IMG/VR virus record: IMGVR_UViG_3300020190_000010
Coordinates: 1 to 64,000 of that record
Direction: 5' to 3' (one strand)
DNA: 64,000 nucleotides
From: a virus
In this document: in pieces, positions 1-18,424 of the stretch
How the letters are laid out: each line of letters starts with the position of its first letter
Position numbering within the stretch: the first letter of the stretch is position 1
Notes under the pieces: generated by a model
What the model was told of the DNA's origin: nothing
What the model saw: the letters and a program-made list of their open reading frames with translations, nothing else
Database searches by the model: none
Program-made: the position numbers and the translations under genes

Positions 1-170
1 GCAATATCGTAGGTGCTTATATTGTCTGCAATATCAGAGGCACGGATTGACTTCACATCATCAAGTGCATCATCCAGTGCATTGATGACATAATTCAGGC
101 GTGTTCGTTCTTCTTTGAGAATGTCCTCGAATGTAGGACCGAGAGCTTTGCGAATTAGGTTGGAAATCAT
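1..170 (-). CDS. hypothetical early protein (partial, runs off left edge)
   Basis: ATG at 170 preceded by AAGGAACAACCAC; reads MISNLIRKALGPTFEDILKEERTRL... open to the edge. Confidence 0.7.
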   Translation of the reverse strand, partial: MISNLIRKALGPTFEDILKEERTRLNYVINALDDALDDVKSIRASDIADNISTYDI

Positions 171-221
171 GTGGTTGTTCCTTAAAGGGTATGTAAAATA
201 ATAATAGTTACCGTTGTTAAA

Positions 222-1613: not shown

Positions 1614-1852
1614 TGTTGTTCCTCCAAGTTCCATTCAAATGCAATCCCTTCTTCATAGCGGAAGTAATCTTCTATATCTTCTAATGTCATATCATTCACG
1701 CCCTTGTGGCCGATGTGAACAATATCCCATATAGCACCATGGTCATACACAAGACCATCAAATATATCTTCGGCTATAATCCGTCTTGCCCCTTGTTCGG
1801 AATATACAGTATATCCCTCGTCAATCAATTCTTGTTTTGTTCTCTTATTCAT
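1610..1852 (-). CDS. hypothetical acidic early protein
   Basis: ORF with AAGGAAACAACC leader. Confidence 0.7.
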   Translation of the reverse strand: MNKRTKQELIDEGYTVYSEQGARRIIAEDIFDGLVYDHGAIWDIVHIGHKGVNDMTLEDIEDYFRYEEGIAFEWNLEEQQ

Positions 1853-1903
1853 GGTTGTTTCCTTCGGTAACTAAAATAATAATACTATACTATACAGATA
1901 AAC

Positions 1904-2517: not shown

Positions 2518-2883
2518 TCAATACCAAGGTGTTTCAGAATGTCTATTTTCATCTATCCTATCAAGCACAGCAGTAACGAGACGCAACTTATCGTGTAGGG
2601 CACATATCTTTTCACCCAGATACTCGTTGGACATTCCTCTCAATGTAGTGAAATCAAGCACGAGCTTTGCCTCCTCCGCGAGTTTCTCAGCATACTCATG
2701 CAATGATTGAGCATCATCAACCGTAATGGCATAAGCCATAGATAAGCCCCATTCTCTGCGTCTCTGCTCCGCCTGTGCCTTGCGGTAATCATGGTATTCA
2801 TCTACTGTCATATTGTTCTGACTAGCAACACGCTTCCAATATCTGGTAACGCCGGCTTGCACTTGTTCGTTGGTCTTATTCAT
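2518..2883 (-). CDS. hypothetical protein
   Basis: ORF with AAGGAAACAACC leader. Confidence 0.7.
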   Translation of the reverse strand: MNKTNEQVQAGVTRYWKRVASQNNMTVDEYHDYRKAQAEQRRREWGLSMAYAITVDDAQSLHEYAEKLAEEAKLVLDFTTLRGMSNEYLGEKICALHDKLRLVTAVLDRIDENRHSETPWY

Positions 2884-2931
2884 GGTTGTTTCCTTAAACG
2901 GTAATAATAATAATTTTACTGGTGGTAATGA

Positions 2932-3252
2932 TTACAGAGAGATATAACCATCTTCATCCATAAAGTCCTTACCAGTAAAGTATGTCCAATTGATAACCAT
3001 ATCATCCTTAAAGAGATTCACTTGACTAACATGCAAACCTTCTGGTGTCTGGCATGGATAGGTATTCAATTCAATAGACTCTGTAATAGCATTGTCAATA
3101 CCATAGGTATTCATAAGAATATCCTCGGCTTTGAACATAGCAGCTGTCTCTGTATTAGCATGGACGAGCATATCCATAGATACTGGTACGCCATTAGGTT
3201 GAAAACCGGTTACTGTAACCTGGTATTCATGGATGTGTCTGTTGTTTTTCAT
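2932..3252 (-). CDS. hypothetical protein, first gene after tandem early promoters
   Basis: ORF with AAGGAAACAACCTT leader. Confidence 0.7.
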   Translation of the reverse strand: MKNNRHIHEYQVTVTGFQPNGVPVSMDMLVHANTETAAMFKAEDILMNTYGIDNAITESIELNTYPCQTPEGLHVSQVNLFKDDMVINWTYFTGKDFMDEDGYISL

Positions 3253-3292
3253 AAGGTTGTTTCCTTAATAGTGGTTGTTGTTCTAATTACTC

Positions 3293-4155: not shown

Positions 4156-4704
4156 ATGTTGCCTGGAGACTTATCATTATTTTGGACCTTTATTAAAAGA
4201 GATTTGTCATTTCCTGCACTTGTGGTATCGTTATTCGGTCTTGCACTTGATGGGTGGTTTGGCATCAGTAATCCCCTTATACTGTTATTGGGTATAACCT
4301 TATTCTCAGCATGGGATGCTATATGTTATGAGATAGCTGCTAGGTCGGACAATCGTGAGAATATGGTTCGTTATCGTATAGGGCAGACAAGTGTGCAAAT
4401 CCTTATCATAACCCTTATGGGTTTATTATCGGATTGGAACACTTGGGTGGTGTTAGGATTTTTTTACCTATGGTGGATGGGAGTATGTGATGTTTTATTC
4501 TACATACTTCTTGGTCGATTGAAGGACATGGTTAGATATGGTGATATGTTTTGGCTGTGGTGGACACCATTGGGTATGATGAATCGTTGGATGGGTAGGG
4601 GGACAAGTGGCATATCGGTATTTCATATTGCTGTGTATGCTGTAATATTGTGGTATGTCATATGGTTGTTTTATCCGGCAGTAAGGTTTGCTGGTTTATT
4701 TTAA
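4156..4704 (+). CDS. multi-pass membrane protein
   Basis: Several hydrophobic, Trp-rich segments; SD AGGAG; upstream TATATTTAT. Confidence 0.7.
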   Translation: MLPGDLSLFWTFIKRDLSFPALVVSLFGLALDGWFGISNPLILLLGITLFSAWDAICYEIAARSDNRENMVRYRIGQTSVQILIITLMGLLSDWNTWVVLGFFYLWWMGVCDVLFYILLGRLKDMVRYGDMFWLWWTPLGMMNRWMGRGTSGISVFHIAVYAVILWYVIWLFYPAVRFAGLF

Positions 4705-4781
4705 GGTGTTGTAAACGGCGACACAAATACATAAGTCATTGGAGATCGGTTGGGTGGGCGCCCGGCCCTTGAGGAGTTAGA

Positions 4782-5252
4782 ATGATTAAATTAAAAAATA
4801 TAATGTTAGAGTTGGATATACCACCGGATGTCCCTAAACCCTTCAAGGGCGTTGATATAATCACCAATGAACTGCCAGATGATATTAGGGGTAATTTTGA
4901 TTCGTATCCTGAATTGCCGAGTCCTATTCTTTATATCCACTCATTTTTTCCAAAGGAAGAGTTTAGGGGAAAAGGATTTACTAAAGCATGGGTATTAAAG
5001 TATCTTGGAGATTGGAAAATGGGAAGACTCAACTACGACAACGAGTTAAATGCTAAATGGGGTTCACGGGGTCTTCGTGATGTTGGTATGGGTTCTGAAT
5101 GGTTTGGCACAAGTACATTCTATGATGATGGTGAAAAATTTTTCAATACCCTTGTGAGAGACGGATATTTGATTAAACAAAATCCTGTTAAGGTTGGTAG
5201 TGGTAGGGCATTGAATTTATACAAAATAACAAATAAGGTAAACATGGTATGA
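4782..5252 (+). CDS. GNAT-like acetyltransferase with MIKLKxxxxE N-terminus
   Basis: LYIHSFFPKEEFRGKGF resembles GNAT acetyl-CoA motif A; downstream DGEKFF helix. Confidence 0.5.
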   Translation: MIKLKNIMLELDIPPDVPKPFKGVDIITNELPDDIRGNFDSYPELPSPILYIHSFFPKEEFRGKGFTKAWVLKYLGDWKMGRLNYDNELNAKWGSRGLRDVGMGSEWFGTSTFYDDGEKFFNTLVRDGYLIKQNPVKVGSGRALNLYKITNKVNMV

Positions 5253-5827
5253 TTAAATTAAAAGACATATTGATGGAACGCATATCCGACATAGTATATC
5301 ACTTTACTACTACGGAAGCGGCAAATAATATAATAGAAACAAACCGTTTTAGATTGACTGATGTGCCGGTTGAACCCAATGTTGATCCTGGCAGAAAGTA
5401 TGACGATGGGTATTATATGTCCGTTGCAAGAACAAAGATAGAAGGGTATACAAAGTCATTCCGGTATGCATGTCACTTTGTTAGATTTGAATTGGATGGG
5501 ACAAAATTAGGAAACAAATATAAAGGTGGTGCTTACAATTATTATCATGGCATGCACGGTAATGATGAATACGAAGAATACGAAGACCGTATCTATTCAA
5601 AAGATATGTATATTCCTAATGCATTAAATTATATCAAGAGAATTGATGTGGATGTCAGTAGAAAATGTACGGGATATGATACTGCAAAGTTAATAAAAAC
5701 ATCAATAGGTGCAGGTGTTCCAACATTCCTATTTCCAAGTAGAGAAAAGTGGTCACAACAATACAATGGTATCGAAGTAAGGGATGTTGATGGATATAAA
5801 CTATTCATGCAATCACTCGTCAAGTAA
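5249..5827 (+). CDS. putative ADP-ribosyltransferase-fold protein with MIKLKxxxxE N-terminus
   Basis: YHFT...YMSVAR...EYEDRI matches the H / S-x-x-R / E-x-E order of ART folds. Confidence 0.45.
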   Translation: MIKLKDILMERISDIVYHFTTTEAANNIIETNRFRLTDVPVEPNVDPGRKYDDGYYMSVARTKIEGYTKSFRYACHFVRFELDGTKLGNKYKGGAYNYYHGMHGNDEYEEYEDRIYSKDMYIPNALNYIKRIDVDVSRKCTGYDTAKLIKTSIGAGVPTFLFPSREKWSQQYNGIEVRDVDGYKLFMQSLVK

Positions 5828-5965
5828 GTCTCTTGCAATAGTAATAAAGTGTTCTTCGTCAATAGGGAATACTGTTTTCAATCTGGCAATAAAGTCCATT
5901 ATACCGGTCTCATATCCTTCGTTATATGATTCCTCAACAAGAGTTAGATCGTTTCCTTTAATCAT
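5813..5965 (-). CDS. 50-aa acidic protein (not in ORF track)
   Basis: MIKGNDLTLVEESYNEGYETGIMDFIARLKTVFPIDEEHFITIARDLLDE. Confidence 0.5.
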   Translation of the reverse strand: MIKGNDLTLVEESYNEGYETGIMDFIARLKTVFPIDEEHFITIARDLLDE

Positions 5966-5985
5966 AGTTTATTCGGTTGGTTAAT

Positions 5986-6026
5986 AAAAAGTGGGGCACC
6001 GAAAACAACCACGAAAACGGTGCCCC
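5986..6026 (-). terminator. intrinsic terminator with 16-nt loop
   Basis: 9-bp stem GGGGCACCG/CGGTGCCCC followed by ACTTTTT on the minus strand. Confidence 0.75.
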
Positions 6027-6066
6027 GATTGCAAACTCCGGGGAGGAGTATGTAGGGAGTAATTAT

Positions 6067-6444
6067 TTAGTAAGAATTTCTATCAATCATTTCTGGACCA
6101 TCGGGTGTATTATCTTGGTCATTGGTGTCTTTGATATTTGAAATACCCCAATCATCTTGAATACCATCAAATTCTCGTCTATATTTTGCTGAAGTATCAG
6201 CTAGTTTTGACATCAAATCATTATGGAAAATATATGTTTTTTGAGAAAGTTGTTTGAATTTTTGCATGGACGGATAGACTTCTGAAAATCTGTTCATCCA
6301 ATAAACGGTATCTATTTCCTTTTCCATTGTTTCTTTATCTAAAACCGCTGTTCTTATAGAATACAATAAATCTATTATTAGCATTTGATTGTGTTCTAAC
6401 TGTTCAAGTTTATCTTCTATTTGTTTTAATTTTAATTCACTCAT
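6067..6444 (-). CDS. hypothetical protein
   Basis: ORF with N-terminal coiled coil. Confidence 0.65.
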   Translation of the reverse strand: MSELKLKQIEDKLEQLEHNQMLIIDLLYSIRTAVLDKETMEKEIDTVYWMNRFSEVYPSMQKFKQLSQKTYIFHNDLMSKLADTSAKYRREFDGIQDDWGISNIKDTNDQDNTPDGPEMIDRNSY

Positions 6445-6456
6445 ATTTTTTCCATT

Positions 6457-6705
6457 TTAATTGTCATTTTCCACTACATAGTCTAACGGTCTACAACTGG
6501 AAAATATAAATTCATTTGATGTTTCAAACGATTTCCTATAAAAATTTATTTCTTTTCCATTGGTAAGTTTAACAACAATACGCAACGCTGTAAGTTTAGT
6601 AACAATAAGTTCATCAGACCATCGATTCATGCTTTCTACCCAAACACGAATTTTGTCACCAACACGAACATATTTTTTTTGATAGTATTTGTATTCTTCA
6701 TTCAT
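6457..6705 (-). CDS. hypothetical small beta-barrel (SH3/KOW-like) protein
   Basis: VRVGDKIRV motif followed by beta-strand pattern. Confidence 0.55.
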   Translation of the reverse strand: MNEEYKYYQKKYVRVGDKIRVWVESMNRWSDELIVTKLTALRIVVKLTNGKEINFYRKSFETSNEFIFSSCRPLDYVVENDN

Positions 6706-6716
6706 AACAAATATAA

Positions 6717-6863: not shown

Positions 6864-6877
6864 TTTATTCTCCTATG

Positions 6878-6951
6878 TGGGCCCAGCAGGACTTGAACCT
6901 GCAACCTAACGATTATGAGTCGTTTGCTCTAACCGATTGAGCTATAAGCCC
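6878..6951 (-). tRNA. tRNA-Ile2 (CAT anticodon, lysidine type)
   Basis: GGGCTTATAGCTCAATCGGTTAGAGCAAACGACTCATAATCGTTAGGTTGCAGGTTCAAGTCCTGCTGGGCCCA; CGACTCATAATCG arm like ileX; no encoded CCA. Confidence 0.85.
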
Positions 6952-6957
6952 TTATTG

Positions 6958-7029
6958 TGATCCCAAGGGGACTCGAACCCCTATTATCGCCGTGAAAGGG
7001 CGGTGTCCTAACCATTAAACGATGGGACC
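6958..7029 (-). tRNA. tRNA-Glu (TTC)
   Basis: GGTCCCATCGTTTAATGGTTAGGACACCGCCCTTTCACGGCGATAATAGGGGTTCGAGTCCCCTTGGGATCA cloverleaf. Confidence 0.9.
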
Positions 7030-7034
7030 TACCA

Positions 7035-7328
7035 TTATTTATTTTCTTTCTCATATTCTTCTGCCTTAATTACTGTCCATTGGAATAACCGGGTATAATA
7101 TCCAATGAAAAATATAATTGGAATTGCAATACCAATTAAAGTAAGCCACATGGGTGCAGATAATAAGAAATTCATATACCAATAGAACACAGTTATACCT
7201 AGAGCTACCATGATAAATAATACCACTATTAAAGCACATATCATAATAAATCCTTTCATGCCCGTAAAGAACACAGAAAGACAACCCATGTTCAATTTTT
7301 TATCATCATTATTTTTCATTTCAATCAT
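7035..7328 (-). CDS. small membrane protein (2 TM)
   Basis: Two hydrophobic segments; true start may be 7319. Confidence 0.65.
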   Translation of the reverse strand: MIEMKNNDDKKLNMGCLSVFFTGMKGFIMICALIVVLFIMVALGITVFYWYMNFLLSAPMWLTLIGIAIPIIFFIGYYTRLFQWTVIKAEEYEKENK

Positions 7329-7365: not shown

Positions 7366-7872
7366 TTAAATTTTTTCCATGACAAAATTAGTTGCGGTTT
7401 GTGCATACATATCACTTAAATAGTATGCTTCAATTTCATAAGGATTTTTATAGTAACCATGTTCTTTGTTCCATCGTTCATACCAACCGCCCTTTGTGGG
7501 TTGTAGGTAATGTATGTATTCATGTATGATAGTCTTGATAAAGACTTTAGCAGTTCTATGGCCACGAACCTTAAGCGATATTGTATTGGTATCTGGATCA
7601 TATCTTGCAATAGATTGTTTGTCATTGTCATCACTATCAAGAGTATTCCATTCCCAAGAAATATACGGATGTTCTCTATTGGTGTTCATACCAAAGGTAT
7701 CAATACACCAGTCAATAGTATGGTCAATTATAGATGAAATAATATCATCGGAAACATTCTTGCGAGACAGATACATAGTTTCCGCCGGTATTGGTTTTAC
7801 CGGCGGAGCCATTGCAAATCGTTTAAGTGATTTTGTTTTAACCATTCTTTTTACTCGCCGATAATAACTCAT
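7366..7872 (-). CDS. zincin metallopeptidase-like protein
   Basis: TIIHEYIHYLQ (HExxH) with downstream PYEIEA. Confidence 0.75.
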   Translation of the reverse strand: MSYYRRVKRMVKTKSLKRFAMAPPVKPIPAETMYLSRKNVSDDIISSIIDHTIDWCIDTFGMNTNREHPYISWEWNTLDSDDNDKQSIARYDPDTNTISLKVRGHRTAKVFIKTIIHEYIHYLQPTKGGWYERWNKEHGYYKNPYEIEAYYLSDMYAQTATNFVMEKI

Positions 7873-9976
7873 CGTTCATGGCCTTAACAACTTTTGCAAT
7901 TTCATCAGCACGACGCAAGTGAACACAATTTGTTTTGTATGTTTCAACAACTTTACAGAAATCATGGGCACCACCAATGAAGTATGTGAGGACATTGATA
8001 CCGCGAGCACGCATACGCTCAACTTGTTTTCTGGAGTGTGTCTGAGCGGACTGTCCACGATATGAAAAATGTTGTTTATCATGTGTCATAAATGGTTCGC
8101 CGTCACATAGGTTGATAAAGTAAGCATCCGTATTAGCAGATTGTTTGATGATTTCACCCATGATTGCCTCAAAACAAAGTCCTTCTGGTGTTGTATTAGT
8201 GACATAGATTGTCTCAAAAACATCACGAATGTGAGCAATGTTATGTTTGGTTGAATCATATAGGTAAATAAGATAAGGTGTATCGTGCATTGATGATTTA
8301 CCTCTACCACCACTATAATTATCTGAATATACAGAACGAGCACTAACTACAACATGAAGGTTCTTAATTTGTTTAGCAGCAACCGCAAACATCACAGCAA
8401 GTTTGACTGATTCTTCAAACTTGTCACCAGACATTGAACCGGATTGGTCAATTGATAAGTGAATGAATGATGGTTGGTATTCGTGGATAGTAATTTGTTT
8501 GAAGATTTCATAATTACTACTACCAATTTCATGTAACAATCTTGCATCAATTCTGCCAGATTTGAGACGGGTAGAAGTAGTTACTCTTTCTTCGTTACGA
8601 ATTTGCAACTTCTTGGCGAGCACTTTACCTAAAGCAATGTATCTGGATACATCGCGTCTTCTCCAGCCGGATTTACGAACACCGAATGGTGCAGACACAT
8701 CACTTTCCATAAATTTACGGTTGATATTACGGACAATAAAAGTTTTGATACCGCGTGGATTAAATCTACCGTAGTCATCCTCAAAATTCTTGGCAACAAT
8801 TTGTTCGTCAAGATCCACAGAAGATACCGCATCAACCTTCTGAGCATCAGCTTTGGACAACTTTGTTTTTTTGGTATCACCGTTGATAAGGTCTCTTTGT
8901 TTCTGAAACAACTTTTCAACTTGTTCTCTTTGTTTGTCTGTTAGTGGTTTGTCACTAACGCCGTCTGGAATAGGATTTGGTCTACCAGTGGTTGGTTCCA
9001 TATCGTCACCTTCACCGTCACCTATGCCACCACCGTCACCATAACCGTCTTGGTCATCTGGTTGGTCATCTTTTTCAATCTCACTTAATTGTTTCAGAAT
9101 GATACCGGCAACCGTATAAGCAAGTTTGATACGGTCTTCATCAGTTTTCAATCTACGAATGTTCTGCAAGTCAAGCGTGTCCCAAACTAATTGCAATGCA
9201 GGTAGGGCATTGAGATTACGGTATGGGCTACGGAAATTACACAAGTGAAAAAGATAATTGTGTGCCGTAGGTTTCATAAATTCTTCGTCATAGAAAGCAC
9301 GGGTTACTTTCTCGTCACCGAAGAATTTATTGTAAAGAGATTTGTAATAGATACGATATCCGGGAGCAGCCGTATATGTCATCGCATCAATATACAAGTC
9401 TTCAATGATATTGACAAGAGATTTGAAAAAGTTTTGTTTATCGGTATAACCTTCAAACAATTTTTCTATATCACCTTGTTCTTGAAACAGATAATTACCG
9501 TTTTCATCCCTCAAATGTTGATGGGCATGATATACCAGATTAGATACTGCATCACGAAACTTTCCCATATCCGTATAAAGAATGTGGCTACTTTCATGTA
9601 GGGCAAGGCCAACATTTGAGTCAAAGTCTTTTTCATTTATGGATGCAGAAAGGTGAACGGTTTTTCCATCGGTCATATTTTGACCATTGTTGTTGTATTG
9701 GACATGAATGTTTGGATCACCGGTCATAATATGAACAAAGTTTGCAACGGCTCGTTGGTATTGTGCGAGGGCAAAGTAGTCATATTTTTCTTCTTTGAAG
9801 CCATATTCATGTTCAAACATGGATTGTTTCTTATCAAACAAGCTACCTTTGAGCCAGTAATTGGTTCCGGCTGAATACTCGTCCTGATAATTAGACGCAT
9901 ATTTGTTCCAAAATTGGTTTGTTCTAGCACTTGCTTCTGCAAGCATACCTTTTACGGACTTTTTGAAAATACTCAT
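7838..9976 (-). CDS. VWA-domain protein with N-terminal HExxH domain (CobT-like MoxR partner)
   Basis: GLALHESSH; acidic linker; MIDAS DQSGSMS, TPEG, LCDGEP. Confidence 0.85.
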   Translation of the reverse strand: MSIFKKSVKGMLAEASARTNQFWNKYASNYQDEYSAGTNYWLKGSLFDKKQSMFEHEYGFKEEKYDYFALAQYQRAVANFVHIMTGDPNIHVQYNNNGQNMTDGKTVHLSASINEKDFDSNVGLALHESSHILYTDMGKFRDAVSNLVYHAHQHLRDENGNYLFQEQGDIEKLFEGYTDKQNFFKSLVNIIEDLYIDAMTYTAAPGYRIYYKSLYNKFFGDEKVTRAFYDEEFMKPTAHNYLFHLCNFRSPYRNLNALPALQLVWDTLDLQNIRRLKTDEDRIKLAYTVAGIILKQLSEIEKDDQPDDQDGYGDGGGIGDGEGDDMEPTTGRPNPIPDGVSDKPLTDKQREQVEKLFQKQRDLINGDTKKTKLSKADAQKVDAVSSVDLDEQIVAKNFEDDYGRFNPRGIKTFIVRNINRKFMESDVSAPFGVRKSGWRRRDVSRYIALGKVLAKKLQIRNEERVTTSTRLKSGRIDARLLHEIGSSNYEIFKQITIHEYQPSFIHLSIDQSGSMSGDKFEESVKLAVMFAVAAKQIKNLHVVVSARSVYSDNYSGGRGKSSMHDTPYLIYLYDSTKHNIAHIRDVFETIYVTNTTPEGLCFEAIMGEIIKQSANTDAYFINLCDGEPFMTHDKQHFSYRGQSAQTHSRKQVERMRARGINVLTYFIGGAHDFCKVVETYKTNCVHLRRADEIAKVVKAMNDELLSASKKNG

Positions 9977-10021: not shown

Positions 10022-10049
10022 ATAGTGTGGAAGCGAACCCCCACACTAT
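10022..10049 (-). other. intergenic hairpin between the AAA and VWA genes
   Basis: ATAGTGTGG...CCACACTAT stem, followed on the minus strand by TATATTTATA and two AACAACC. Confidence 0.55.
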
Positions 10050-11097: not shown

Positions 11098-11369
11098 TTA
11101 TTTTGATTTTTTTTGTTAATTTTAGATAATTTCTTATCTACCAAAAACTTAACTGCATCTTCGTGAACCATATATTTTACTTTCTTTTGGTTCTCTTTCT
11201 GAATTTTCATAACAAGAGTTTGATCAACTACGGGTTTCTCTTGTATTTTGTAACTTTGATATTTTCGGGTTCTTCCATTTGTAAGACGGCGAACATATTG
11301 GAATGAACATCCGAGAATTTTTGCAACTTCTGGTACTGTGTACCATTTTCCTTGTGGGGTGTCAATCAT
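11079..11369 (-). CDS. helix-turn-helix DNA-binding protein (excisionase/MerR-like)
   Basis: WYTVPEVAKILGCSFQYVRRL. Confidence 0.7.
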   Translation of the reverse strand: MIDTPQGKWYTVPEVAKILGCSFQYVRRLTNGRTRKYQSYKIQEKPVVDQTLVMKIQKENQKKVKYMVHEDAVKFLVDKKLSKINKKNQNNALISQ

Positions 11370-11944
11370 TTCTTTCTCCTGGTTGTTTTGGTTGGTTTAA
11401 TAGATTTAGTTATCGTTTTCTTTGTAGTTTTCTTCGTTGTCTTCGCAGTCTTCGGTTTGGCAGTTTTCTTCTTCGTAGTTCTCGTAGCCGCCTTTGCAGG
11501 TGTCTTTTTCTTCTTCAACTTTTTGGTTATCTCTGCGGAAATTTTATCATCAAGCGTGACTTTCTTTTTCTTGTTTGGTGTTGCGGGTTTGATTTCTGTT
11601 GCCGGTAAACTACCGAACAATTCTGGTTTTTCTACGCCCTTATGATATACCTTGCCGTTCTCATGTACAAATTCCTTAAAAAATTTCCAACCGCGAGGAA
11701 AGCCAGTCGAAACTGTTTTCTCATTGAGAGTAGGACCTGGAATCTTTCCAGCAACACATCGCCAACAAGTGGCAGAGACAACACCTTCCATGACACGCAG
11801 TTTTTCGTTACAGTCACGACCAGAATACCATTTACTTGCGGGATTTCCACCTTCACAAGTTACGGTTCGCATCTTGATATTTTCAAGATTTCTTGTTTGT
11901 TTCTTTGCAGTTCCTTTGCGTTTCATATTTTGTTTCCTTATCAT
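11366..11944 (-). CDS. basic protein with Cys cluster and Lys/Thr-rich histone-H1-like tail
   Basis: C..C..CWRC, PRGWKF; C-terminal KKTAKPKTAKTTKKTTKK. Confidence 0.7.
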   Translation of the reverse strand: MIRKQNMKRKGTAKKQTRNLENIKMRTVTCEGGNPASKWYSGRDCNEKLRVMEGVVSATCWRCVAGKIPGPTLNEKTVSTGFPRGWKFFKEFVHENGKVYHKGVEKPELFGSLPATEIKPATPNKKKKVTLDDKISAEITKKLKKKKTPAKAATRTTKKKTAKPKTAKTTKKTTKKTITKSIKPTKTTRRKK

Positions 11945-12351: not shown

Positions 12352-12483
12352 TACAAATGTAAGGCATTGCCAACTAAGATCAAAGCAATTTTTGAAATAA
12401 TTGTAACAATGTTCATATTTGTTTGTTTGGTTGTCATCATTGCATATTACAAATATAAGGCATTTTTTTGTAAGATCAAAGCA
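12352..12483 (-). promoter_or_regulatory. two tandem early promoters (12352-12387, 12448-12483)
   Basis: TGCTTTGATCTTA-N9-TGCCTTA(C/T)ATTTGTA twice. Confidence 0.8.
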
Positions 12484-14205: not shown

Positions 14206-14288
14206 ATGGTCGGTATATGTTTTAACCATATCGTTAATTTCAACGGAATGGTTCGTTAAATATATTATCCATAAATGAGGACAAGATT

Positions 14289-14792
14289 ATGACTAACAAA
14301 TGTAAACGGGTTATATCATTGTTTTTCATTGGTTTCTGTTTTCCGTTAGTAGCAATGACTACTACTCTAAACAGAAGTGCTGAAATAAAATCGGTAACAA
14401 TGAAAAAAGTGCTATATTCATCTATCGTTTGGGTTGAGTCAAAAGGCAATGCAACCGCACGATCAAAGGATGGTTCACTTGGAATAGTTCAAATTTTACC
14501 AGTAATGGTGAAGGAAGTGAACCGTATCTGTAAAATGAAAGGTATCAATAAAACTTTTACTTTACAAGATAGGCTAAATCCTGAAAAGTCAGAACAAATG
14601 TTTTGGATTTTTCAGAATTTCTACAATCCCAACATTAACTGGGAAACCATCACAATGAGTGAGATGGAGATCATTGCACGAAAGTGGAATGGAGGTCCTA
14701 ATGGACATAAAAAAGGTGCTACTAAGCACTATTGGAATAAAGTTTCAAAGATGGTCTATAAAGACCTAAAAGAAAGGGGAGTTAAGGTATAA
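14289..14792 (+). CDS. lytic transglycosylase (SLT/lysozyme-like) with N-terminal signal/anchor
   Basis: IVWVESKGN catalytic Glu, GIVQI, ARKWNGGP. Confidence 0.85.
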   Translation: MTNKCKRVISLFFIGFCFPLVAMTTTLNRSAEIKSVTMKKVLYSSIVWVESKGNATARSKDGSLGIVQILPVMVKEVNRICKMKGINKTFTLQDRLNPEKSEQMFWIFQNFYNPNINWETITMSEMEIIARKWNGGPNGHKKGATKHYWNKVSKMVYKDLKERGVKV

Positions 14793-18382: not shown

Positions 18383-18424
18383 CCCACCGTGTTAATGCAG
18401 AAATGTAAACCGGTGGGTTTTTTT
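18383..18424 (+). terminator. intrinsic terminator
   Basis: CCCACCG...CGGTGGG followed by T7. Confidence 0.65.

Follow-up and report, generated by a model that had tools for sequence, protein, structure and literature searches.

Does a hairpin with a long loop behind an early phage gene only end a transcript, or does its loop also act on other messages of the same phage? The question is raised by a non-coding element located on the minus strand at positions 5981-6066 of the window, that is, of the first 64,000 nucleotides (nt) of the IMG/VR virus record IMGVR_UViG_3300020190_000010 (137,492 base pairs (bp), 33% G+C). In a preliminary description of this DNA, the loop of a terminator hairpin in the 3' untranslated region (UTR) of the open reading frame (ORF) 6067-6444 was proposed to be antisense to a leader shared by early genes, so that one small trans-acting RNA could silence a whole class of early mRNAs. 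The present analysis suggests that the segment 5981-6066 is very probably a real structured terminator module of the minus strand, the 16-nt loop of which is invariant among relatives. The role of this loop as an anti-leader RNA toward the early genes is plausible on sequence grounds, with the balance of probability somewhat against it.

The element begins right after the stop codon of ORF 6067-6444, and its main stem starts 40 nt past this codon. The loop of 16 nt on the minus strand has the sequence that had been described for it; the stem does contain nine base pairs, but it is not composed of G and C only, since eight G-C pairs are accompanied by one A-U pair. The anatomy is that of an intrinsic terminator, namely, a G+C-rich stem-loop with a U-tract directly after it on the transcribed strand. 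The fold of the element has an energy of -27.9 kcal/mol (z = -4.2), and no equally stable structure was found among 200 shuffled sequences. In our own scan of the complete 137-kb record, no other G+C stem followed by a T-tail was as strong as this hairpin; terminator scanning limited to loops of up to 8 nt misses it. Nucleotides of the loop are predicted to be unpaired with p >= 0.99, with the exception of four involved in a weak CG/UG inner pair, and the predicted opening cost is 1.4 kcal/mol.

No known RNA family was found for the element: at the gathering score of Rfam 15 the window contains two tRNAs only, and at a permissive threshold the region 5900-6150 yielded only CcsR1 (RF02791), with 15 bits vs. 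a gathering score of 65.3 (E = 0.27). The covariance model R1, built from the alignment of the element, detected one copy in the 137-kb record, one copy per related locus and none in the sole cultured relative found, 'Microcystis phage Mel-JY01' (GenBank PP395634.1; 33% identity over the 712-amino acid (aa) protein of 7838-9976). The sequence CTCCCTACATAC, with up to two mismatches allowed, occurs a single time. Pieces resembling the element, ACTCCCTA, CGGTGGCCCC and CTCCCCTGCTACATACT, are present in a different order in the non-coding gap 222-469 of the minus strand. A second or degenerate copy of the element at this place was rejected, as R1 finds none in the window, the whole record or Mel-JY01.

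Relatives of the element were found both by its own sequence and independently of it. The exact 34-nt hairpin is present in four further IMG/VR contigs, and two more contigs carry it with one stem change each. For a sample independent of the hairpin, a metagenome collection was searched with an alignment of the 50-aa protein P0001, encoded downstream; the loop is present in 32 of the 35 loci obtained. The remaining loci are L202, which is cut inside the hairpin, L212, which has only 3 nt of upstream sequence, and L219, a weak partial match in which the loop is absent within 1016 nt. The alignment comprises 33 distinct versions of the element (136 nt each) from related lake phages, and none of the 16 columns of the loop is variable. 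The loop, predicted to be unpaired and showing no variation, has the properties of an accessible and conserved seed.

The neighborhood of the loop is far from invariant. The tail and spacer beside the hairpin vary among relatives. Among 29 distinct copies of the adjacent 50-aa gene, variation was found in 37 of 49 columns at third codon positions, with a tree length of 4.35 substitutions per site, and in 6 of 49 at second positions; the hairpin is more tightly conserved than the latter. As a control, an ordinary tetraloop terminator was analyzed at 10022-10049 (minus strand), 4 kb away, where it precedes the promoter of the gene for the 712-aa protein. In the subset of loci that include it, eight distinct versions of this terminator were found, with compensatory stem changes and altered loops. 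The 16-nt loop is thus under sequence-specific purifying selection, and its conservation is a solid result.

Changes in the main stem are few and indicate the strand on which the element is used. Five events were found: three one-sided changes, one double change of C-G to U-A (L213) and the loss of one base pair from both arms (L207). All three one-sided changes give G-U pairs on the minus-strand RNA, where a plus-strand RNA would have A-C mismatches. Over 26 distinct rows of the alignment, 99.6% of the cells of the main helix keep the pairing; helix shuffle controls have little power because stem changes are so few. We conclude that the element is a structure under selection that works as a minus-strand RNA, and that its large loop is read by some partner in a sequence-specific manner.

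Upstream of the main stem, the element contains a small hairpin, the shape of which is kept in relatives and the sequence replaced: its arms are CUCC/GGAG, CCCC/GGGG or UCCC/GGGA, the forms in relatives being CCCC-GCCCGCUU-GGGG or UCCC-GCCCCCUU-GGGA, and the loop is always C-rich. MAFFT misaligns these forms, so that covariation counts for this helix (helix 1) are unusable. The tracts ACUCCCU and CUCCUCCCC, previously interpreted as resembling an anti-Shine–Dalgarno (anti-SD) sequence, are indeed present; the anti-SD interpretation itself is weak for a Bacteroidota host, the CCUCC tract is not conserved, and CUCCUCCCC is changed to CCCCGCCCGCUU in about half of the relatives.

The genes around the element differ from phage to phage. 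At least six different gene ends abut it upstream, and at least five contexts were found downstream. In four loci (L201, L207, L211 and L220) another gene is located between the hairpin and the P0001 homologue, and in L004 a different gene follows. Since the element is tied to neither neighbor, it behaves as an autonomous module at a mosaic boundary. No usable family match was obtained for the neighboring proteins in PHROG and Pfam scans.

A distant DNA search of GenBank phages with the segment 5700-6700 gave no match, and no relatives were found in IMG/VR via the 125-aa upstream protein. A search of IMG/VR for the stem with any loop of 3-30 nt returned 100 stretches, of which four are related, already known and have the same loop; the rest are unrelated G+C-rich sequences. 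The loop 16-mer was found in 53 stretches of IMG/VR: six contain the stem, and the other 47 have three flanking pairs at most. Two of these matches, L103 and L147, share five further bases, but they lie in coding sequence. In 185,579 species genomes, the loop with the stem ends had no matches, and the 18-mer was matched 46 times, in no case with a related context or with more than six pairs in a flanking stem. On these results, a host origin of the loop was rejected. In three loci (L188, at 6295-6311; L189; L192), the loop shares 14 identical nt, on its own strand, with a membrane-protein gene located 650 nt upstream of the hairpin. This identity, in a segment encoding GFVVVS, was judged coincidental.

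The proposed partner of the loop is the heptamer AACAACC, 28 minus-strand copies of which are present in the record, 14 of them within 1-12.4 kb. Eleven of these 14 copies are located no more than 45 nt upstream of the start of an ATG-initiated ORF, vs. 6.5% expected, and a twelfth precedes a cut gene at 170. Two settings were found in the window and in all close relatives. In setting (a), the motif lies 12-16 nt downstream of a host-type -7 box, often as AACAACCAC, which occurs four times in the genome. In setting (b), it stands directly before ATG in a repeated cassette, ATTATTATT..TTACCG..AAGGAAACAACC-ATG-AAT-AAG, copies of which are found on the minus strand at 170-206, 1118-1153, 1492-1526, 1852-1885 and 2883-2915, with unrelated ORFs behind them. 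In the copies at 1852 and 2883, identity extends through ATG AAT AAG A, and the proteins have no significant similarity. The repeated unit looks like a mobile promoter/leader cassette. AACAACC(AC/AU), the complement of the loop, is a hallmark of early-gene leaders in this phage and all its close relatives.

The longer motif GGAAACAACC had been reported for the early genes starting at 1852, 2883 and 3252, and exact copies are indeed found at all three (1853-1862, 2884-2893 and 3255-3264, minus strand). The close variants reported at 170, 1118, 1492 and 1613 are also present; copies with one mismatch are located at 1121-1130 and within the loop itself when it is read on the plus strand. The location of GGAAACAACC between an SD sequence and ATG was not borne out, since its own GGA is the only SD-like element there. 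In five of five related records GGAAACAACC is exact, with six copies in G005, and its strand is in every case that of the hairpin RNA. Wherever close relatives keep the leader, the loop is kept as well in every locus with enough upstream sequence, except L219. Of the conservation and covariation expected for a pairing loop and leader, conservation was thus observed and covariation was not, as neither partner varies.

The motif is not confined to phages with the hairpin. In Mel-JY01, AACAACC leaders likewise follow promoters of this kind; since it has these leaders without any detectable copy of the hairpin, the motif has a primary role of its own. The leader motif is therefore older and more widespread than the hairpin, and its primary role presumably lies in initiation or in the structure of the leader. 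It was also considered whether the loop imitates a part of 16S rRNA with which leaders might pair; this is not supported, as GGUUGU does not occur in the 16S sequences of two Bacteroidota, chosen arbitrarily and not necessarily the host.

Pairing of the loop with start regions was evaluated with RNAduplex for positions -30..+6 of 400 ATG-ORF starts (ORFs of at least 40 aa, both strands). The best duplex, of -18.1 kcal/mol, was obtained at three start regions, vs. a mean of -6.4 (standard deviation 2.5) over the 400. At the genes starting at 1852 and 2883, nucleotides 2-15 of the loop pair with GAAACAACCAUGAA over 14 contiguous base pairs (two of them G-U), covering -9..+5, with CGU of the loop opposite AUG. 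The third site, CAAAACAACCAGG, is located upstream of the start at 11369. After subtraction of opening costs, the three best sites retain a net energy of -14 to -16 kcal/mol. Leaders of type (a) form nine perfect pairs, GUGGUUGUU with AACAACCAC, at about -13 kcal/mol, and other early leaders with AACAACC form 9-12 bp; the gene 2932-3252 has a second AACAACCAC just after the -7 box, 18 nt upstream of GGAAACAACCUUAUGAAAAA. Conserved complementary targets are thus found at start regions, with 14 bp at two genes and 9-12 bp elsewhere. The 14-bp register is better than the duplex of 10 nt with one G-U pair described previously, which is not supplied by the loop alone, since the tenth pair uses the first C of the 3' arm and nine nucleotides come from the loop.

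Complementarity of this extent is seldom reached by chance. Among 300 mononucleotide shuffles of the loop, five reach -18.1 kcal/mol at the best site and none reaches it at a second site; 13 of the 300, like the real loop, reach -13 kcal/mol at six sites or more. Pairing is worse with the loop reversed or with that of the plus strand. The likeness to the leader also continues beyond the loop: CGGU in the 3' arm is opposite ACCG of the TTACCG...AAGGAAACAACC leaders, with a 3-nt gap, and, read on the plus strand, the 3' arm and loop resemble the part of the cassette leader that begins at ACCG and extends to the start codon, less three bases. We think that the loop-leader relation is real and not accidental; its origin could lie in an inverted copy of a leader as well as in selection for pairing. 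The coordinates of the element, its neighbors and the predicted targets are given in the table.

Table. Features of the hairpin element, flanking genes and predicted targets (all on the minus strand)
Feature	Position	Strand	Basis and remarks
Nearest upstream Bacteroidota-type -7 box TATATTTG	6708..6715	-	Pattern scan; abuts ATG at 6705; promoter use inferred
Upstream gene, 125 aa (P0002)	6067..6444	-	No PHROG or Pfam match
Conserved pyrimidine-rich 5' tract AUAAUUACUCCCUACAUAC	6048..6066	-	Kept in 33/33 versions as (U)UACUCCCUAYAU or UUCUCUCUCAUAU
Small hairpin, C-rich 5' arm and loop, ACUCC-UCCCC-GGAGU (6049-6035)	6032..6052	-	Fold and alignment
Main stem, 5' arm GGGGCACCG	6018..6026	-	Sequence, fold and alignment
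Invariant 16-nt loop UUUUCGUGGUUGUUUU, candidate anti-leader seed	6002..6017	-	Alignment of 33 versions
Main stem, 3' arm CGGUGCCCC	5993..6001	-	Sequence, fold and alignment
U-rich terminator tail ACUUUUUAUU	5983..5992	-	Length varies among relatives
Downstream gene, 50 aa, acidic (P0001)	5813..5965	-	27 nt past the tail; usual, not obligatory neighbor
Best predicted target GAAACAACCAUGAA, -9..+5 of gene 1610-1852	1848..1861	-	Duplex -18.1, net -15.2 kcal/mol
Best predicted target, same 14 nt GAAACAACCAUGAA, -9..+5 of gene 2518-2883	2879..2892	-	Protein unrelated to that of 1610-1852
Predicted target CAAAACAACCAGGAGAAA, -21..-4 of ORF starting at 11369	11373..11390	-	Duplex -18.1, net -15.8 kcal/mol
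Weaker predicted target AGGAACAACCACA before ATG at 170	170..182	-	Duplex -14.9, net -11.2 kcal/mol
Weaker predicted target GGAAACAACCUUAUGAAAAA, gene 2932-3252	3245..3264	-	Duplex -14.5, net -9.1 kcal/mol

The element lies in a minus-strand block of densely packed small ORFs (1-13 kb). Promoters of the Bacteroidota type, TTG-N19-TAnnTTTG, are found in this early block, e.g., ...TTGATCTTAA...CCTTATATTTGTA at 12457, 12361, 3515, 3302 and 821. A homologue of the ribosomal protein bS21 is encoded at 88663-88812 (plus strand) of the record, outside the window (Pfam PF01165, 48.6 bits). Freshwater phages encoding bS21 are predicted, in a published study, to infect Bacteroidetes (PMC9723584). The presence of the bS21 homologue places the phage with or near these published phages, and its host is probably a member of the Bacteroidota. 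SD pairing is described, in the same source, as mostly unused in Bacteroidota (PMC9723584). DNA nearly identical to that of the phage was found in 20 lake-water metagenome runs. Genes of tRNA-Met (CAT) and tRNA-Glu (TTC) are located at 6877-7029 on the same strand, about 850 nt upstream of the hairpin. The record of Mel-JY01 (L271-L280) is rich in Bacteroidota-type promoters (cTTGcat...N...TAnnTTTGta) followed by AACAACC leaders. Such promoters are unexpected in a cyanophage, and the stated host of Mel-JY01 may deserve a check; no publication on this phage was found in the literature.

The transcript that ends at the hairpin can be outlined from the pattern scan. The box TATATTTG, followed by TT and then ATG, is present at two minus-strand ORFs, 7035-7328 (segment 7328-7338) and 6457-6705 (segment 6705-6715), and its position abutting ATG of 6705 and 7328 suggests leaderless early mRNAs. 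The promoter at 6715 likely starts an early transcript of about 720 nt that would end at the hairpin. No host-type promoter was detected by the scan between 6067 and 6715, so a small RNA from the element would derive from a 3' UTR. The downstream 50-aa gene begins 27 nt after the tail and has no visible promoter. Two forms of pairing in cis were considered. Contact between the 5' and 3' ends of a single transcript is not supported for the short one, since an mRNA started from 6715 would be leaderless and lack AACAACC. A duplex between the loop and the start of the following gene was rejected, as it reaches no more than -9.0 kcal/mol (net -5.4) and the spacer changes among relatives.

If the loop does act as an anti-leader RNA, the following sequence of events may be proposed. 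Early transcripts from host-type promoters, the nearest being that at 6715, would end at the hairpin, and a 3' fragment protected by it would persist. The exposed loop would nucleate pairing with initiation regions containing AACAACC in the early mRNAs of the phage itself. Pairing would occlude the start codon, in the cassette class, or change the stability and decay of the mRNA, and the output of early genes would fall as the hairpin RNA accumulates. Among the explanations considered, this one ranks first, still at less than even odds.

Similar long-loop hairpins with T-tails are present at two other places, 18383 and 14810. The 22-nt loop of the hairpin GAGAGAA...TTCTCTC, which follows the gene 14289-14792 (plus strand), contains the segment 14828-14838, and 11 nt in the 5' UTR of the same gene, at 14206-14216 (plus strand) just after a TAnnTTTG box, are exactly complementary to it. 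Both complementary halves are unchanged in L221 and L223; in L222 the 3' part of the pair was not captured by the search pattern. The hairpin at 18383-18417 (plus strand) consists of CCCACCG, a 21-nt loop and CGGTGGG, then seven T, and no stretch of at least 10 nt complementary to its loop was found on that strand. At least two long-loop 3' hairpins thus mirror a 5' leader, which raises the prior for RNA-RNA contact by such loops. On a broader conjecture, early genes in bS21-encoding freshwater phages of Bacteroidota would be shut off by RNA alone: the 3'-end hairpin would accumulate, its invariant loop would pair with AACAACC(AUG) of a dozen or more early mRNAs, and the long-loop terminators of this lineage may generally contact 5' leaders. 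Taken as a whole, this conjecture is doubtful rather than likely.

A number of observations weigh against the anti-leader role. The loop of 16 nt exceeds the short loop of about 3-8 nt typical for intrinsic terminators, and termination at this hairpin is a prediction. The significance of the shuffle test is moderate (5/300), and a U-rich loop pairs easily with A-rich leaders. The targets at 1852 and 2883 share a duplicated leader cassette and count as one event. The loop and the core AACAACC are both invariant in the relatives found, so covariation does not arise. A closed 16-nt loop could hardly form all 14 bp without opening of the stem, and a first contact of about 7-10 bp would be realistic. 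The timing logic is not obvious, since the RNA would share its early promoters with many of its targets. In Mel-JY01, which has the leaders, the element was not detected (best model hit E = 0.87), and no G+C stem there carries GGUUGUU in its loop. None of the runs listed with nearly identical DNA is an RNA run, which is recorded only as a blank.

The element could instead be an intrinsic terminator that also stabilizes mRNA 3' ends and serves as a recombination linker, with its loop kept identical by repeated cassette exchange among co-occurring phages or by a local need for termination efficiency and its match to the leader a by-product, e.g., of an inverted leader copy. The terminator anatomy right after stop codons agrees with this explanation, as does the mosaic boundary, with its contexts numbering at least six upstream and five downstream. 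With 3 nt missing, the 3' arm and loop on the plus strand resemble a leader, as an inverted duplication would give, and leader cassettes are themselves mobile, standing before unrelated ORFs and sharing first codons with them. Homogenization, however, leaves unexplained why the loop, with no changes, is stricter than the stem, with five events; the tail and spacer next to the hairpin vary freely, the neighboring terminator drifts in the same genomes, and the element is single-copy, unlike repeated linker cassettes. This explanation is somewhat unlikely. Binding of a phage or host RNA-binding protein to the loop, with effects on read-through, processing or stability and no RNA-RNA pairing, would fit the sequence-specific invariance of a displayed 16-nt loop. 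The 27 nt after the tail leave no room for a promoter, so the downstream gene needs read-through, and in both main forms of the element upstream CCCCG could alternatively pair with CGGGG at the base of the stem. However, no candidate protein was identified among the neighbors, which have no family matches, the 50-aa neighbor being acidic; the form of the element is kept when a different gene follows, and the match to the leader motif is left unexplained. Protein binding is unlikely.

Two further explanations give the leader motif itself the central place. AACAACC(AC) could be a DNA site for a regulator of early promoters, the hairpin copy being an extra operator in the opposite orientation; the fixed position of AACAACC 12-16 nt downstream of the -7 box in the phage, its relatives and Mel-JY01, as well as the four occurrences of AACAACCAC in the genome, would be expected in this case. 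Yet an operator gives no reason for its location inside the loop of a stem that keeps pairing on the RNA of one strand, nor for the fixation of all 16 positions of the loop, beyond the 7-9 nt common to leaders, and it is very unlikely. The preliminary description had also offered a decoy, namely, a plus-strand transcript of the hairpin displaying AACAACCAC for a factor that binds leaders. The plus-strand genes 4156-5827 do converge on the region, and the loop of the plus strand carries the leader motif in the sense orientation; its poor pairing with start regions is irrelevant to such a role. The decoy is nevertheless disfavored to the point of being hardly credible, as the three one-sided substitutions in the stem would all be A-C mismatches on the plus strand, and the U-tract is absent from the plus-strand side.

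Whether or not the anti-leader role is real, the locus offers a testable pair: an early leader motif found throughout a lineage of abundant lake phages, and one non-coding hairpin that mirrors this motif in its loop. If the pairing is real, a class of genes would be controlled compactly by one RNA, and a terminator loop would be put to a use not seen before. Otherwise, what remains is a striking case of an ultra-conserved non-coding module located at a mosaic boundary, the loop of which must have another partner. Post-transcriptional control in Bacteroidota phages is almost unexplored, and in hosts that initiate translation largely without SD pairing, the question is how a phage marks and times its own mRNAs.

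Terminators, sRNAs (small RNAs) derived from 3' UTRs and phage antisense RNAs are already known. No published phage RNA aimed at a shared early leader was found in the literature on phage-encoded sRNA, early genes and base-pairing, and a search for 'AACAACC' in the phage literature returned nothing relevant. What would be new is a single invariant loop of a terminator directed at the leader and start codon common to the early-gene class of its own phage, in phages of Bacteroidota and with conservation across a mosaic boundary. The element resembles intrinsic terminators in the G+C stem with an immediate U-rich tail past a stop codon, and in compensatory or G-U changes that keep the stem; it differs from them by its invariant 16-nt loop (3-8 nt being usual) and by the gene 27 nt downstream without a visible promoter.

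The c4 antisense RNA of phages P1 and P7 is described as phage-encoded, short, structured and derived from a longer transcript (PMC8546580). The element analyzed here is likewise phage-encoded, short and structured, and would derive from a longer transcript; it has no homology to c4 by the Rfam scans of the window, its seed is in the loop of a terminator, and its proposed targets are a class of early leaders rather than one operon. Functions of temperate immunity were not seen in the parts of the phage examined. The loops of c4 pair with sites at the ribosome-binding region, and the CI RNA of P4 is an RNA of the same kind.

Base-pairing sRNAs with seeds displayed in loops, those of terminators among them, are represented by hairpins 13 and 14 of RNAIII of Staphylococcus aureus and by RsaE/RoxS. 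The element shares two stem-loops, C-rich motifs and a loop-displayed seed with RNAIII, RsaE/RoxS and the CcsR ('cuckoo') sRNAs. Unlike the sRNAs with C-rich loops, it has a G/U-rich seed, and its tract CUCCUCCCC is replaced in half of the relatives; with a score far below the gathering score, it is not a member of CcsR1. In T4-type phages, PeSL cassettes consist of a promoter and a stem-loop and are repeated many times per genome. Both they and the element are conserved non-coding stem-loop cassettes at the boundaries of shuffled small early genes; the element, in contrast, is single-copy and has no recognizable promoter, and the cassette repeated in this phage is the leader, not the hairpin.

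A functional parallel is found in phage T4, in which the endoribonuclease RegB cleaves GGAG within initiation regions of early genes and the translational repressor RegA has many initiation regions as its binding sites (PMC3014915). The logic is the same, a shared feature of initiation regions being used to shut off many early mRNAs. Should early shut-off by RNA alone prove true, an RNA would do the job of the T4 proteins RegA and RegB in a host lineage without the usual SD-based initiation. The T4 effectors are proteins, whereas the effector proposed here is an RNA loop, and the shared feature that it would recognize is AACAACC together with AUG.

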